Assembly (NCBI GenBank): GCA_014435945.1
Contig: GCA_014435945.1_4088.1
DNA from: a phage
Direction: 5' to 3' (one strand)
Length of the DNA: 64,000 nt
Program-made: the position numbers and the translations under genes
In this document: positions 44,344 through 48,707 of the stretch, in pieces
Position numbering within the stretch: position 1 is the stretch's first letter
How the letters are laid out: each line of letters begins with the position of its first letter
Notes under the pieces: model-generated
Told to the model about the DNA's origin: nothing
The model's input: the letters and a program-made list of their open reading frames with translations, nothing else
The model's database searches: none

Positions 44344-45201
44344 ATGAAACTTTATCTAATCGTTGACTACAGTAAGGGTTATTATGACTACGCAGAAGAA
44401 TCTGAAGGGTATTGCTCGTCTACTAATGTCAATGTACGCACCAGTAATACACATGAGCATGAATCTATTACAAACCTAAAAGATTTCATCGCATATCGAG
44501 CATTTGAAAAGAATTTCTGTCGTAGTAGATATTCGAAGTTTGAGTACCCGTTGATTGATGTTCCTGATGAATTGATGTTCCAGTTAATGCTCACTGGAGT
44601 ACAAGATTATGATTACATCGCGTACAATCACATTACTAAGAAAATTTATATCGGTACGTCAACACATGACATTTCTATGTATGCATCATGCCCGGATGAT
44701 CGAATGAAGGATAGAAATTCACGAAATTCATACAGTAGTGGTTCAGTTGGTTTAAATGATGCATTAAATAAAAATTTATTCTTTGAGTACGAGTTTGATA
44801 ATCATCGAAGGAAAAAAGACCGAGAAGATTATTGTACTGAAATTGATAGTACCAATGGATATGAAGAAGTGAAAGAAGCGTTAATGCCATATATCCTTGA
44901 CAAGTACTACAAAGATTTTCAGTACTGTAGTAATTTTCTAATCCGAAATTCTATCATAATCGGTCGTCAAAGTACTGCATTCTCTAAGTACTACAATGAT
45001 TCCCCTGTTGCTGAAAATGAAAACTGTAATGTTCTCTCAATCCCACGTGAAGATATGGTATTCATGTTCACATCTTTCATTGAAGATGATGAGTTGTATG
45101 TAAAAAACAAGCACAGGTTCATGCCAAGTAAGATTGAGGTTATGAGAAGCTTAAGTGCAGATATCTTAACGAATTTCACTGAAAAAACAGAATACAACTG
45201 A
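44344..45201 (+). CDS. hypothetical protein (285 aa), F2-like
   Basis: Contains DELMFQLMLTGVQD; GGAG RBS. Confidence 0.55.
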   Translation: MKLYLIVDYSKGYYDYAEESEGYCSSTNVNVRTSNTHEHESITNLKDFIAYRAFEKNFCRSRYSKFEYPLIDVPDELMFQLMLTGVQDYDYIAYNHITKKIYIGTSTHDISMYASCPDDRMKDRNSRNSYSSGSVGLNDALNKNLFFEYEFDNHRRKKDREDYCTEIDSTNGYEEVKEALMPYILDKYYKDFQYCSNFLIRNSIIIGRQSTAFSKYYNDSPVAENENCNVLSIPREDMVFMFTSFIEDDELYVKNKHRFMPSKIEVMRSLSADILTNFTEKTEYN

Positions 45202-45230
45202 GACATACCATAAGTTTATGATATAATGTA

Positions 45231-45262
45231 AGGTGACAGCAGAATATGTTGTCACCTTTTTT
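45231..45262 (+). terminator. rho-independent terminator
   Basis: AGGTGACA stem, 11-nt loop, TGTCACCT then TTTTTT; GTGATATAAT-type element sits just upstream at 45219-45227. Confidence 0.65.
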
Positions 45263-45794
45263 AATCCTGAAAGGTTCCATATGGAAATGATTGAAGCCTA
45301 ATCCACTCGAAAAGTAGAGGGTAGATGAGTAGTCCTTTCAGTACGAACAGCAAATGAAACCCGTTAGATGATGGCATAGTTTGAACCACTCACGGCAATG
45401 CGGCTGTATAAAGAACTCCAATAGGATAAAGAGAGTTCCTCGATAGACATATAAGGATCGCACCTTACCAATTATCTAAGGGAGATTTCATGAGAAATTT
45501 GCGGTCGTAATTTATACAATATAGTTGCGTCCAAAATTCGTGAAATCAAATACAAGTACTGGTCATATGGTATTTGTATTATGTGTCGGGATGTTTAAGA
45601 CCGACGACCGTTGCTACAAGAACCGCGATAGAGAGAAACAGAGCAACCCGCTTTCGCCTCGTAAGAGAATTCGTGATATGAACTATGTGAAGGCCACCAG
45701 CGTCAAACTTTTTTTGTTCTTTCCCCTGCGGGGGGATGAAATATGCTCAAGCAAACCCCGTCAATATTAATTAAAACAAATCATAGTACTTTCG
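45263..45794 (+). other. unassigned noncoding island (candidate structured RNA or decayed gene)
   Basis: About 530 bp with no convincing ORF, visibly higher GC than flanks, 12-bp palindrome TTCCATATGGAA near 45273. Confidence 0.3.
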
Positions 45795-45823
45795 TTGAAT
45801 TAGACATGCGAAGCGTGTATAAT
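45795..45823 (+). promoter_or_regulatory. sigma70-like promoter with extended -10
   Basis: TTGAAT 45795-45800, 17-nt spacer, TGtATAAT with hexamer 45818-45823. Confidence 0.6.
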
Positions 45824-45884
45824 TCGACTGGTGTTGATGAAGTCAACGCCATGTACAGTCATTGATGTTTCCATAGGAATAATG

Positions 45885-46427
45885 ATGTCATTTATTAAAA
45901 AATCTAAAAGCGTCACTTATAAAACACTAGAATTTGTTGATTCAGACAATCAGAACCAAGACCAAGAGAATTTTACTGGTTTTGTTGTGATTAAAGAAAA
46001 GGGATGTATTTCGTACATCAAAGAGTTGCAGTGCGGTTTTGAATTAACTTCCATTAAGTTATTCCCAACCAAGAAGCCTACAATTCTTAAAGCTCGTTAT
46101 GGGAACTACTACGAAGAGCGTTATAGTAATAATCTAATCAGTGCGAAAGCACATATCGTCAATGGAGAACTAGAAGGAGAATATAGAAAATTCAACCCAC
46201 AAGGAAAATGTGTTTGGGTTAAATACTTCAATTCAGGAAATGATGTAACATCAGAAATTATTGAGTTTTTAGGTTTAACATGTACCCTTGAAACTCTTCA
46301 TGATTACAAATTTAATACTGAAGAAGAGTTTAATCTGATGATGCGTTATGGATCACATTTTAAATTTTTATATGAATACAACATTGACAGTAGTACTTTT
46401 GATGACATAGTACTTAACTGTCTATAA
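45885..46427 (+). CDS. hypothetical protein with MORN-like repeats
   Basis: AGGA 6 nt before ATG 45885 (ATG 45882 also possible); YxGxxxxG-type repeats e.g. NGELEGEYRKFNPQGKCVWVKYFNSG. Confidence 0.5.
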   Translation: MSFIKKSKSVTYKTLEFVDSDNQNQDQENFTGFVVIKEKGCISYIKELQCGFELTSIKLFPTKKPTILKARYGNYYEERYSNNLISAKAHIVNGELEGEYRKFNPQGKCVWVKYFNSGNDVTSEIIEFLGLTCTLETLHDYKFNTEEEFNLMMRYGSHFKFLYEYNIDSSTFDDIVLNCL

Positions 46428-46443
46428 TCAAAGGAAATTATGT

Positions 46444-46968
46444 ATGTCGAAGAAGGATGCTTCGAAGAAAAAACAATCAGTACATTTCAGTACTGGAAAA
46501 GATAACTGGACTACTCCAAAGGATTTCTTTGAAGATTTGGATGAACTCTGGGAATTTACACTAGATGCAGCGTGTGTCAAAGAAACTGCATTGTGTGATA
46601 AGTTCTTTACACCAGAAGACAATTCACTTGAACAGGACTGGGGAAACAATATCGTGTGGCTCAACCCACCGTACAGTGATTTGAAAACGTGGTTATCTAA
46701 GGCAGTTGATGCATATAACAAAGGTGCTACAGTACTGATTCTCGTACCATCAAGAACTGATACTATAGCCTTTCAGGATTATGCTGCGAAAGTTTGTGAT
46801 TGTATTTGTTTTATAAAAGGTCGCTTAAAGTTCGGTATCCCTGAAGAACCAGATAAAAAGACGGACAGTGCTCCATTCCCTAGTTGTTTAATAGTACTGG
46901 ATAAGTATTTGACTCCAGCTAAAATCAACTATCTTAAATCTATTGGTCAGGTGATGAAGAACATATGA
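46444..46968 (+). CDS. dam: phage Dam-type N6-adenine DNA methyltransferase
   Basis: DNWTTPKDFF, FTLDAAC and catalytic WLNPPYS motifs typical of the phage Dam N6A-MTase family; AAGGAAA RBS. Confidence 0.8.
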   Translation: MSKKDASKKKQSVHFSTGKDNWTTPKDFFEDLDELWEFTLDAACVKETALCDKFFTPEDNSLEQDWGNNIVWLNPPYSDLKTWLSKAVDAYNKGATVLILVPSRTDTIAFQDYAAKVCDCICFIKGRLKFGIPEEPDKKTDSAPFPSCLIVLDKYLTPAKINYLKSIGQVMKNI

Positions 46969-47498
46969 AAGAAACATGCGTAGTGACATTCGGAAGAATT
47001 AACCCTGTACATCGAGGTCATGGTTTAGTGTTTGAAAAAGCTCAAGCACTACAAGAACAGTACAATGCTGATTTGAAAATATTCCTTAGTACCAGTACTG
47101 ATGCCGTCAAAAACCCATTACCTCCTGAACTGAAAATGTACTATACAGAAGGATTTTACCCATCTGTACAAGAAAATATCTATACAGAAGATAATCTGTT
47201 TGATATAATGAGAGAACTGGATGGAAAGTACTTAGATGTTCTTTTCATATGTGGTTCAGACAGACTTGAACCATTCCAAAAAACGCTTGACACGTACAAT
47301 GGGAAGTTATATAATTTTTGTTCAATCAAGGCAGTTCAAGCTGGAATTGATCGAAATGTAAGTCGCTACAGTTCCACACAGATGCGTGAGTTTGCCAAGA
47401 ATGAAGATTTTAATAGCTTCAGTACTTTTCTACCTGGTAATGATGATGCACTGAAAACTAAACTATTTGAAGATGTAATAAAATACATGAGGAAATAA
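46965..47498 (+). CDS. HxGH nucleotidyltransferase, NMN adenylyltransferase-like
   Basis: N-terminal FGRINPVHRGH and C-terminal SRYSSTQMRE (ISSTxxR-like) of the cytidylyltransferase-like superfamily; about 177 aa. Confidence 0.6.
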   Translation: MKETCVVTFGRINPVHRGHGLVFEKAQALQEQYNADLKIFLSTSTDAVKNPLPPELKMYYTEGFYPSVQENIYTEDNLFDIMRELDGKYLDVLFICGSDRLEPFQKTLDTYNGKLYNFCSIKAVQAGIDRNVSRYSSTQMREFAKNEDFNSFSTFLPGNDDALKTKLFEDVIKYMRK

Positions 47499-47500
47499 CT

Positions 47501-47794
47501 ATGTCAGTACTGTTTAAAACTAACCCAGTACTTTGGGATCAGAATGAGGATTCGGGTTTCCGTTCAATCCATGTTGAATTCAAAGGTAATACGGTGGTTG
47601 CAATCATTGCAAACAAAACTTTAGGAAACTGGACTGCACAAGTTGTTCCTATGGGATATTCTTATACATCTGATGAAGTTGCGTTTCTGGCTGAATTATA
47701 TAGTCAAACACCATTCATCATCAATGTTTTAGAGCGTAGTGATAAGTTAACACATGACGAAGTAATTGACTTCCTGGCGAACTTACATGTCTGA
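47501..47794 (+). CDS. hypothetical protein (97 aa)
   Basis: ATG 47501 after GAGGAAATAACT. Confidence 0.6.
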   Translation: MSVLFKTNPVLWDQNEDSGFRSIHVEFKGNTVVAIIANKTLGNWTAQVVPMGYSYTSDEVAFLAELYSQTPFIINVLERSDKLTHDEVIDFLANLHV

Positions 47795-48074
47795 TGATTC
47801 GAATCTAACAGGTTATTTTTTACAAGAATCAATGATCAAATTCAGTGAACATTTTCCAGTACTAGATGGTGTGGAGATGTGGCATGTAAAACCACTCTTC
47901 CACACTTTCAGTAAAGAGCACAAAATGTTATTGACTGAGGCTTGTAAATCGAATAAAATATGCCAAATCAAGATTGGTGTAAATGTCTACAAAGGATTAG
48001 TCATCTTTTTTGACAACAACAGCAACTACTTTTATATTGTTAAGGAGCATTACGTTGACAAATACAAATACTAA
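47787..48074 (+). CDS. hypothetical protein (95 aa)
   Basis: ATG 47787 overlapping upstream stop (track TTG 47766). Confidence 0.55.
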   Translation: MSDDSNLTGYFLQESMIKFSEHFPVLDGVEMWHVKPLFHTFSKEHKMLLTEACKSNKICQIKIGVNVYKGLVIFFDNNSNYFYIVKEHYVDKYKY

Positions 48075-48672
48075 TACATACTTTCGTTATCTTCGCCTAG
48101 GGCTTTCCCTACGCCCAATCCGTGGTAAGTGTGATTCACTTGCTGATTTGGATTATGCATATGCATTACATTGTGATGGTGTTCAATATGTATTAGGTGA
48201 CTATGGCACATTCGAAGAATCCAATGACAGTTCAGAAATTATTGCTGGTGTTGCTAACCTTAACAACATTGCCAATAGTTCTCGTCATGAAATCGTTCTT
48301 GAAATTCAGAACTTCATTGAGAAAAATACTGGCAAGCGTACATGGTCATATGTCGGTACTGATGCACAAATGTCAATCGCATTTGGTAACGAAGATGGTT
48401 ATGTAGCACAACTTATTATGGATTTCGAATCAGAAGAGAAGTTCCTAGAATACAAGGAAAAAATCATCCAATCCTTGTTGCAAATGGGTATTCCTGAAGA
48501 TCGTATGCCTGAAATTCAAAGCATTGATGAGTTTGTTCTTATCCCATCTGATGAAAAATATGATGCGATGTTTACAGCACTGAACATTCCTGGTGTAGTT
48601 GTTGAGTACTTCGATGATGGTGATGCTGACATTTACCTAGATCTCGACGACGATGATGACGATGATGAATAA
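48055..48672 (+). CDS. acidic protein with poly-Asp C-terminal tail
   Basis: AAGGAG 48042-48047 seven nt before in-frame TTG 48055 (start uncertain); ends YLDLDDDDDDDE. Confidence 0.45.
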   Translation: MTNTNTNTYFRYLRLGLSLRPIRGKCDSLADLDYAYALHCDGVQYVLGDYGTFEESNDSSEIIAGVANLNNIANSSRHEIVLEIQNFIEKNTGKRTWSYVGTDAQMSIAFGNEDGYVAQLIMDFESEEKFLEYKEKIIQSLLQMGIPEDRMPEIQSIDEFVLIPSDEKYDAMFTALNIPGVVVEYFDDGDADIYLDLDDDDDDDE

Positions 48673-48678
48673 TACATA

Positions 48679-48707
48679 TAGCCCGACATAAGTTCGGGCT
48701 ATTTTTG
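48679..48707 (+). terminator. rho-independent terminator
   Basis: TAGCCCGA-cataagt-TCGGGCTA stem-loop followed by TTTTT. Confidence 0.7.

Follow-up and report, generated by a model that had tools for sequence, protein, structure and literature searches.

What kind of genetic unit lies at positions 45,795-47,498 of the 64,000-nt stretch of phage DNA analyzed here (GCA_014435945.1, contig GCA_014435945.1_4088.1; hereafter, the window)? An earlier note had read it as a cassette of three coupled genes behind a strong promoter, encoding a MORN-like protein (g1), a Dam-type adenine methyltransferase (Dam) and a nucleotidyltransferase (NTase) resembling nicotinamide mononucleotide (NMN) adenylyltransferases (NMNATs), the last of which could replenish nicotinamide adenine dinucleotide (NAD+) and so counter NAD-depleting defences. 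With moderate confidence, we favor a different account, in which an Asteriusvirus jumbo coliphage has a single conserved early transcription unit, of which the locus forms the middle, the RNA upstream of the genes is real and the NTase does not serve NAD reconstitution. The cassette genes are real but ordinary, and the Dam is already known. The upstream RNA is the more interesting object at the locus: it is new, large, multi-copy, contains more than one pseudoknot and belongs to one jumbo-phage lineage.

A structured RNA upstream of the methyltransferase and nucleotidyltransferase genes

Escherichia phage EC.P1 shares 99.7% identity with the window across 45500-47800, at least eight further coliphage records, among them vB_Ec-M-J, which is classed as an Asteriusvirus, share 98-99%, and PBECO4, 121Q and slurp01 share ~84%. 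In vB_Ec-M-J the counterpart locus lies within a block of small early genes, on the right-hand side of a 21.5-kb terminal repeat. The gene order, consisting of a preceding gene (g0, 44344-45201), the RNA, g1, Dam and NTase, is kept in three lineages, namely Asteriusvirus, Mimasvirus GAP32 and the Klebsiella Rak2-like phage RCIP0023. About 680 nt without a credible open reading frame (ORF) separate g0 from g1, and this gap houses the RNA, a real structured molecule supported by covariation.

The structure was derived from an alignment (A7) of 26 copies differing by more than 4%, for which RNAalifold returned 72 pairs, 44 of them with compensatory changes. After two pseudoknot helices had been added by eye and one conflicting pair dropped, the final structure comprised 80 pairs in 16 helices, the two pseudoknots included, in copies of ~485-580 nt. 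Paired cells amounted to 96.9%, compared with 80.0 +/- 0.5% in the shuffle control and 38-45% in controls in which the pairing partners were slid. Double changes were found in 51 of the 80 pairs (32.7 in shuffles), and the covariation score was 0.458 (shuffles, 0.165; slid controls, 0.07-0.09); not one of 500 shuffles reached any of the observed values. The fold of a single sequence was uninformative (z -1.7), and the comparative analysis was decisive.

Some DNA repeats also recur between genes, and the block might instead act at the DNA level, as an origin or regulatory repeat, or might code for small genes, and several GenBank records indeed place small 'hypothetical protein' ORFs over it. 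However, the compensatory double substitutions and the level of pairing given above, against ~40% in the slid controls, are features of a folded RNA, and the indels, which sit in variable stretches between conserved blocks, have lengths that are not multiples of three. The signal is specific to one strand because of invariant G-U pairs, and a promoter of the same orientation accompanies each of the aligned copies; from these two features the RNA is assigned to the plus strand. We therefore consider a DNA element or coding genes highly improbable, and the small ORFs annotated on the RNA are spurious.

The window contains a single copy of the RNA (nhmmer match at 45262-45770, E 4e-127). Its DNA is ~71% identical to the GAP32 copy over ~480 nt, with many long invariant blocks, while the flanking proteins share 31-41% amino acid identity. 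Using blastn, we found the RNA at 273 places in 62 phage records, with 4-5 copies per genome. All 62 records are Rak2-like jumbo phages, the hosts of which are Escherichia, Salmonella, Erwinia, Yersinia, Serratia, Cronobacter, Pectobacterium, Xanthomonas and Klebsiella. In vB_Ec-M-J, four copies are located at 59.4, 112.1, 196.4 and 307.3 kb, all on one strand and each in a gap of 650-850 nt. The equivalent gap of RCIP0023 holds a diverged copy (nhmmer E 1.4e-42), and a pattern scan of IMG/VR yielded further copies. A similar scan of bacterial genomes gave at least two real copies among the 120 matches listed, the remainder being almost all chance matches; these two copies are probably phage contigs in metagenome-assembled genomes.

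The tRNA scan and the Rfam search of the whole window at gathering thresholds gave no match, Rfam at E<=10 returned only chance-level matches for three different copies of the RNA, and our literature searches found no description of this jumbo-phage RNA. A group I intron, tmRNA, RNase P RNA, riboswitch and guide RNA were considered and rejected, as there was no Rfam or ARAGORN match, no interrupted gene and no adjacent reverse transcriptase or nuclease. Among known large RNAs, the phage-associated ROOL and GOLLD are comparable in being large, ornate multi-helix molecules with pseudoknots that are borne by phages. The putL and putR RNAs of phage HK022 are promoter-proximal antiterminators. Like these comparators, the present RNA is promoter-proximal, and in most copies it is followed by a terminator-like hairpin. 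Unlike ROOL, GOLLD and the put RNAs, it occurs in 4-5 copies per genome, exclusively in Rak2-like jumbo phages and without tRNA neighbors, and it is far larger than the put RNAs. It could be a device that alters transcription or termination in cis, or else a trans-acting RNA or ribozyme. Few new RNAs this large are found, and they have repeatedly proved to be ribozymes, assemblies or regulators. Since one copy is carried by a coliphage, the RNA is directly testable in E. coli.

Two further properties of the RNA were observed. Alternative structures are hinted at by the 5' GAUGAG, for which either of two similar segments near the 3' end, AUCAUCGUCAG and AUCUCGUCAG, could be the pairing partner. 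Furthermore, a hairpin module of ~35 nt (containing UACAAUAUAGAUCCGUCUAAAAUU) is found at either of two positions depending on the copy (A7 columns ~300-335 or ~470-500), resembling an internal transposition of a sub-domain.

Promoters and extent of the transcription unit

The RNA is preceded by an extended -10 promoter (45200-45227; Table 1). A -10 element of the form TGnTAtAAT precedes the RNA in five of five aligned copies, and a -35 element of the form G(A/G)GACA (GGGACA or GAGACA) is seen in the four Asteriusvirus copies. Most copies of the RNA contain an internal terminator-like hairpin with a U-run, ~25 nt before a conserved 3' module (CCCCUGCGGGGGGAUGAAA...CUCGUCAG). This hairpin is missing from the copies at the Dam locus (the window, 121Q, GAP32 and RCIP0023) and from the copy at 307 kb, and the window has no terminator between the RNA and g1. 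As the internal hairpin is lacking in the window copy, transcripts from 45200-45227 probably read into g1, Dam and NTase. The unit would then run from this promoter through the RNA (45260-45773), g1, Dam, NTase and three small ORFs to a terminator at 48678-48702, and the RNA would double as the 5' leader of the g1-Dam-NTase operon if such read-through occurs. On balance, we lean towards an operon that is headed, and possibly controlled, by an undescribed class of large pseudoknotted RNA; independently of this, the NTase may represent an uncharacterized enzyme activity.

The promoter of the earlier note does exist as a sequence at 45795-45823, but its supposed strength is unsupported. If it were the true start, the three genes would form an autonomous cassette and the upstream RNA would be an unrelated, separately terminated gene. 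The site is indeed non-coding, lies 62 nt before g1 and combines a 17-nt spacing with a perfect -10, and it is unchanged in vB_Ec-M-J, which is 98% identical across the region. Nevertheless, a 10/12 match is at chance density, with 27 comparable sites in the 5.5-kb neighborhood compared with 25.8 expected from shuffles. In 121Q both the -35 and the -10 are degraded, the aligned stretch of GAP32 lacks a counterpart, as does that of two GAP32-like IMG/VR contigs, and RCIP0023 yielded nothing comparable, despite the conserved gene order. Together with the missing terminator between the RNA and g1, and with a gene string that runs on past NTase, this leaves an autonomous cassette as a possible but doubtful reading, and the site may at best be a lineage-specific secondary promoter.

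The gene string also bears on where the unit ends. All three ORFs of the proposed cassette are real, and the stop and start codons of Dam and NTase overlap (ATGA), with a gap of 16 nt between g1 and Dam. The cut after NTase, on the other hand, is arbitrary, because closely packed genes continue (47501-47794, 47787-48074 and 48055-48672) up to the hairpin at 48678-48702. The first of these, g4, was compared in GAP32 only and is conserved there. The product of 48055-48672 ends in an acidic tail. The start of g1 is ATG 45885 in annotated relatives, GTG 45831 being a mechanical extension. No paralogue of g1, Dam or NTase was found elsewhere in the window.

Three observations weigh against a single unit read from 45200-45227. 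First, transcripts from this promoter could be stopped by the hairpin at 45230-45258, a likely terminator of g0 with which the first part of the RNA transcript overlaps. Second, the site at 45795-45823 may be the working promoter in the lineage of the window. Third, the NTase coding sequence itself contains, at 47287-47315 on the plus strand, a full 12/12 match to the sigma-70 consensus (TTGACA-17-TATAAT) that could drive the downstream small genes, and the unit may therefore be more complex.

Table 1 Features of the locus and related copies of the RNA
Feature	Position	Strand	Remarks
Sigma-70-type promoter, extended -10, GAGACA-16-TGATATAAT	45200..45227	+	10/12 match with TG; conserved upstream of the RNA
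12-bp hairpin and T-run directly past the -10	45230..45258	+	GAP32 equivalent annotated as terminator
Large structured RNA, ~510 nt	45260..45773	+	Sole copy in the window; covariation; no Rfam match
Promoter-like site, TTGAAT-17-TATAAT	45795..45823	+	10/12, perfect -10, non-coding, 62 nt before g1
g1, 180 aa, PHROG 16210	45885..46427	+	PHROG match; orthologue GAP32_067
Phage Dam-family N6-adenine DNA methyltransferase (by sequence), 174 aa	46444..46968	+	PF05869; TIGR01712 (sub-cut-off); PHROG 111
HIGH-motif (HRGH / SSTQMR) nucleotidyltransferase, phage 'cytitidyltransferase' family, 177 aa	46965..47498	+	PHROG 3041
g4, 97 aa, PHROG 14956	47501..47794	+	33% identity to GAP32_070; belongs to the gene string
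Two small overlapping ORFs, 47787-48074 and 48055-48672	47787..48672	+	EcMJ_158, EcMJ_159
Terminator-like hairpin and T-run	48678..48702	+	Probable end of the transcription unit
RNA paralogues in vB_Ec-M-J	L007:32076-32652, L009:16337-16844, L011:27273-27766	same strand
RNA relatives	GAP32 L006:2258-2773; RCIP0023 L061:1205-1672
Internal RNA hairpin	A7 columns ~553-585; e.g. L009:16337-16844, L023:6092-6637		Absent at window 45700-45730

The nucleotidyltransferase belongs to a large phage family

The HxGH and SSTxxR motifs reported for 46965-47498 are present as HRGH (residues 16-19) and SSTQMR (residues 136-141). Since (H/T)xGH and ISxTxxR are common to the whole HIGH superfamily, these motifs do not discriminate between its members. 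The protein falls into PHROG 3041, 'cytidyltransferase' (E 4.1e-54). Its Pfam matches, FAD_syn and CTP_transf_like, were both sub-threshold, and its NCBIfam matches, RibF and NadD, were sub-threshold and confined to the N-terminal motif region. Against PF01467 it scored 16.9 bits, under the 21-bit cut-off, which is passed by the orthologue GAP32_069 (27.4 bits) and by P0171 (33.1 bits); 49 of 70 long family members match this profile at E<=1e-3. A phmmer search against PDB sequences gave no match.

The AlphaFold model of the NTase, a confident one (pLDDT 85.4, pTM 0.80), had PPAT as its top Foldseek match (E 5e-6, TM ~0.6), and it matched PPAT, NadM, ArgRS and archaeal NMNAT about equally. The model thus presents a generic HUP-class Rossmann-like nucleotidyltransferase fold with no clear subfamily. 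A profile of the broader family (A2), run against PDB sequences, gave marginal matches to the TmcAL-like MJ0951 (1.6e-5), to a NadR-type protein (1e-3), to archaeal NMNAT (6e-3) and to PPAT (7e-3), as well as a full-length but still marginal match to S. aureus NadD (E 2e-4). PPAT (CoaD), although the best Foldseek match and of similar size (~160 aa), is matched only marginally at the profile level (E ~7e-3), and there is no coenzyme A pathway context.

An alternative is that the NTase is an adenylate-forming enzyme of the TmcAL/CitC type or a PPAT/FMNAT-like one, or that its substrate is a molecule related to nucleic acids, which it would modify or activate; in the latter case it could cooperate with the co-translated Dam or act on the neighboring RNA. 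MJ0951 has the best E-value among PDB sequences and shares the motifs xNPxHxGH and ISGTKIR...LP, and one family member has a weak Citrate_ly_lig match. Most family members have TxGH, as does PPAT. The ATGA overlap of Dam and NTase is a conserved synteny in three jumbo-phage genera, and the family sits in replication modules. The MJ0951 match, however, consists of 39 C-terminal residues and a weak N-terminal motif, no specific family is significant over the full length, and the other copies of the RNA and the other carriers of the NTase are unlinked. We regard a specific assignment of this kind as improbable.

The NTase joins, as a new member, a phage nucleotidyltransferase family that is already known, though uncharacterized. 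Word-indexed searches recovered close relatives only, and an exhaustive profile search was required, which returned 3445 cluster representatives at E<=1e-3. Among the best 150 of these, 39 are stand-alone, 101 carry the domain at the N-terminus of proteins of 260-1224 aa and 10 carry it elsewhere. The C-terminal extensions are mutually homologous in 95 of 103 cases. In the 70 long members, Pfam detected DUF5824 (15), Zeta_toxin/AAA_33 kinase (5), Hint (1) and ParB_N (1), and no Nudix, NAPRTase or other NAD-related domain. By tblastn, the family occurs in 566 phage records, including 375 from Synechococcus phages, 61 named 'Cyanophage' and 24 from Prochlorococcus phages; carriers also include the pelagiphage HTVC008M and Rak2-like and PA5oct-like jumbo phages, and overall they are mostly T4-like cyanophages. 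The member in phage S-SM2 is T4-GC190, located between gp41, MazG and gp61, and on metagenomic contigs a member adjoins DNA polymerase B or lies near a ribonucleotide reductase (RNR) and a Nudix gene.

Family members are commonly annotated as 'cytitidyltransferase', a spelling for which our literature search found nothing relevant. The cyanophage proteins of this name (for example, S-SM2 SSM2_161 and S-SZBM1_140) are 32-35% identical to the window NTase (tblastn E 1e-15 to 1e-23) and agree with it at the invariant H, R (GSDR), S and R. They differ in architecture: the window NTase is a bare 177-aa domain, whereas cyanophage, pelagiphage and metagenomic members mostly have extensions of 200-1000 aa. 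These extensions comprise DUF5824 and a linker rich in K and E, joined in some cases by Hint or a Zeta-toxin-like kinase, and at least one such member is virion-associated, the 362-aa homologue of S-SZBM1 having been detected in the virion proteome by authors who call its function unclear (PMC9146016). The arrangement of NTase domain, K/E-rich linker and DUF5824 was seen in long members within P0030-P0170, for example P0101, P0041 and P0036. This architecture resembles that of 'polyvalent' injected phage proteins and fits the detection in S-SZBM1 virions. We also considered whether the genes following NTase could be a split-off C-terminal extension, and rejected this, as a hidden Markov model (HMM) of the extension matches no ORF in the window.

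Several orthologues, among those of 121Q, Ecwhy_1, fEgEco12, 7t3 and metaG-MbCM1, are annotated as 'ribonucleotide reductase A' or 'NrdB', and one record names the orthologue 'phosphopantetheine adenylyltransferase'. The RNR and PPAT labels look like propagated mis-annotations.

In the proposed mechanism, the NTase would transfer a nucleoside monophosphate (probably AMP from ATP, or else CMP) onto a small acceptor bearing a phosphate or carboxylate, with release of pyrophosphate, and would serve the replication and nucleotide-metabolism or host-takeover program of the phage early in infection. A family that is delivered in the virion and fused to polyvalent-type modules elsewhere would fit immediate-early host-takeover or anti-defence chemistry other than NAD synthesis. 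The 177-aa protein stands for a very large phage family in small, soluble form; it should be listed neither among phage NMNATs or the members of an NAD-reconstitution pathway nor under the name 'ribonucleotide reductase A'. Because the chemistry of the family is uncharacterized, the protein offers a convenient entry for biochemistry.

Relation to NAD metabolism

The resemblance to NMNATs claimed in the earlier note holds at the level of superfamily and fold, but every NAD-family model failed. The NTase scored 18.6 bits against TIGR00482 (cut-off 112.45) and 16.9 bits against NF000840 (cut-off 150). The best curated profile match of 46965-47498 is the generic 'cytidyltransferase' family rather than an NAD family, and no specific non-NAD family prevails. 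Compared with NadM, NadR and NadD, the window NTase has ~15% identity, passes no family HMM, lacks a Nudix fusion and has no adjacent Nampt. A tblastn search with NadM of phage CBB gave no match to the window NTase at E<=10. Phage enzymes of the NMN (NaMN) adenylyltransferase group include the NadM-Nudix of CBB and GAP32 and, in the NARP2 pathway, NatV of KVP40.

An NAD-replenishing role in anti-defence is not supported by the genomic context either, as the closest annotated genome has no Nampt or NadM partner. No gene for Nampt, NMNAT (NadM), PnuC or a PRPP-synthetase-like protein appears in the complete vB_Ec-M-J annotation, and tblastn with CBB Nampt and NadM-Nudix against this genome and the window found nothing at E<=10, with Sir2 as a control recovered at 44% identity. 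CBB Nampt itself matches 2017 phage records, and none of the best 60 of these (down to 36% identity) is among the records matching the window. In the CBB record, CBB_113, a bifunctional NMNAT/ADP-ribose pyrophosphatase for which a similar Cronobacter-phage protein is noted, and CBB_115, the Nampt, lie upstream of Sir2 and PhoH; NMNAT genes, Nampt and PnuC have been reported for both CBB and GAP32 (PMC5259590). About 9 kb past the counterpart of the window end, vB_Ec-M-J has only Sir2 and a stand-alone NUDIX gene (L007:7169-8385). The canonical NadM-Nudix/Nampt pair is seen at the corresponding position in CBB (L004:1-6120), so that in Asteriusvirus the NAD-salvage pair is missing at that position.

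The distribution of the family points in the same direction. The NTase orthologue and Nampt coexist in GAP32, 7t3 and RCIP0023, yet 23-25 kb apart, and no NAD-salvage partner was present within 3-6 kb of the NTase in eight other contexts examined. Synechococcus phages, which contribute 375 records to the NTase family, are outside the ten commonest Nampt-carrying groups (<55 records), and apparently hundreds of cyanophage NTase carriers are without Nampt. Because Nampt is absent or distant, the carriers differ and NAD-related fusion domains are lacking, we conclude that the family is decoupled from Nampt-type salvage.

How probable, then, is an NMN or nicotinic acid mononucleotide (NaMN) adenylyltransferase with which the phage replenishes NAD+ against NAD-depleting defences? 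Such an enzyme would have the HxGH and SSTxxR motifs, and the family profile aligns with S. aureus NadD over its full length (E 2e-4) and also with a NadR-type NMNAT (E 1e-3). The GRxNPxHxGH of the NTase resembles the NadM/NadR motif, GRFQPxHxGH. Asteriusvirus retains Sir2 and a Nudix gene, and its jumbo-phage relatives invest in NAD metabolism (PMC5259590; PMC11662467). On the other side are the NAD-family HMM scores far under their cut-offs, the absence of a Nampt, Adps or Namat partner from the closest annotated genome, the distance of the orthologue from the Nampt locus in relatives, the canonical NadM-Nudix at the CBB locus, the abundance of the family in Synechococcus phages and the lack of any Nudix, NAPRTase or AAA_28-type kinase among the fusion partners. 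E. coli is not known to have a Nampt, and without one an NMNAT alone would be unable to rebuild NAD+ from nicotinamide.

We consider the NAD-replenishing enzyme unlikely, although less so than the more specific substrates discussed above. NMN or NaMN would still be the single most likely acceptor of the NTase, at a probability well short of even, and a role in recycling ligase-derived NMN is possible. Orthologues of the NTase coexist with the canonical NadM enzyme in relatives, which argues against redundancy but is no proof of a different substrate and, in that respect, tempers our conclusion. In our preferred account, the NTase is probably outside the Nampt-type NAD-reconstitution pathway, and a NARP2-like anti-defence role is unsupported.

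The Dam methyltransferase and g1

The product of 46444-46968 is, by sequence, a PF05869 N6-adenine methyltransferase, as the earlier note had proposed. It matches PF05869 with E 2.5e-32 and 112.3 bits (cut-off 28.1), residues 17-161 corresponding to positions 7-153 of the 169 in the profile, and it reaches 92.5 bits against TIGR01712, narrowly under the equivalog cut-off of 97.05. It is assigned to PHROG 111 and contains the motifs TPKDFF (residues 24-29), DAAC (residues 41-44) and the catalytic NPPY (residues 74-77; nt 46663-46674); phmmer against PDB sequences gave no match. The phage Dam family PF05869/TIGR01712 is T1 Dam-like. The window protein shares with it the size of ~170 aa, NPPY, the location among early genes and the presumed anti-restriction role, and differs in being translationally coupled to a nucleotidyltransferase and in having GATC depleted nearby.

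Early in infection, the Dam would use S-adenosylmethionine to methylate adenines of the phage DNA, both as it enters and as it replicates, and would thereby blunt restriction. GATC is two-fold depleted in the window (116 vs 215.9 +/- 12.5 expected), which is unlike the prediction of simple GATC self-protection and complicates the reading as a GATC Dam. The tetranucleotide GCGC does not occur in the whole window (0 vs 30.7 +/- 5.7 expected), and GTAC is enriched 1.6-fold. The depletion of GCGC and GATC is a strong signature of restriction-site avoidance.

The g1 protein matches PHROG 16210 (E 1.8e-81) and is 31-34% identical to its orthologue GAP32_067. Its description as MORN-like is neither confirmed nor excluded: there was no Pfam or NCBIfam match at E<=1, and the AlphaFold model is of low confidence (pLDDT 56.5), showing eight hairpin strands followed by helices.

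Finally, a separate feature was observed in vB_Ec-M-J near the right end of the genome (L012:3206-20767, minus strand), where 14 tandem paralogous genes of ~380 aa are annotated as 'regulator of chromosome condensation' (RCC1-like).

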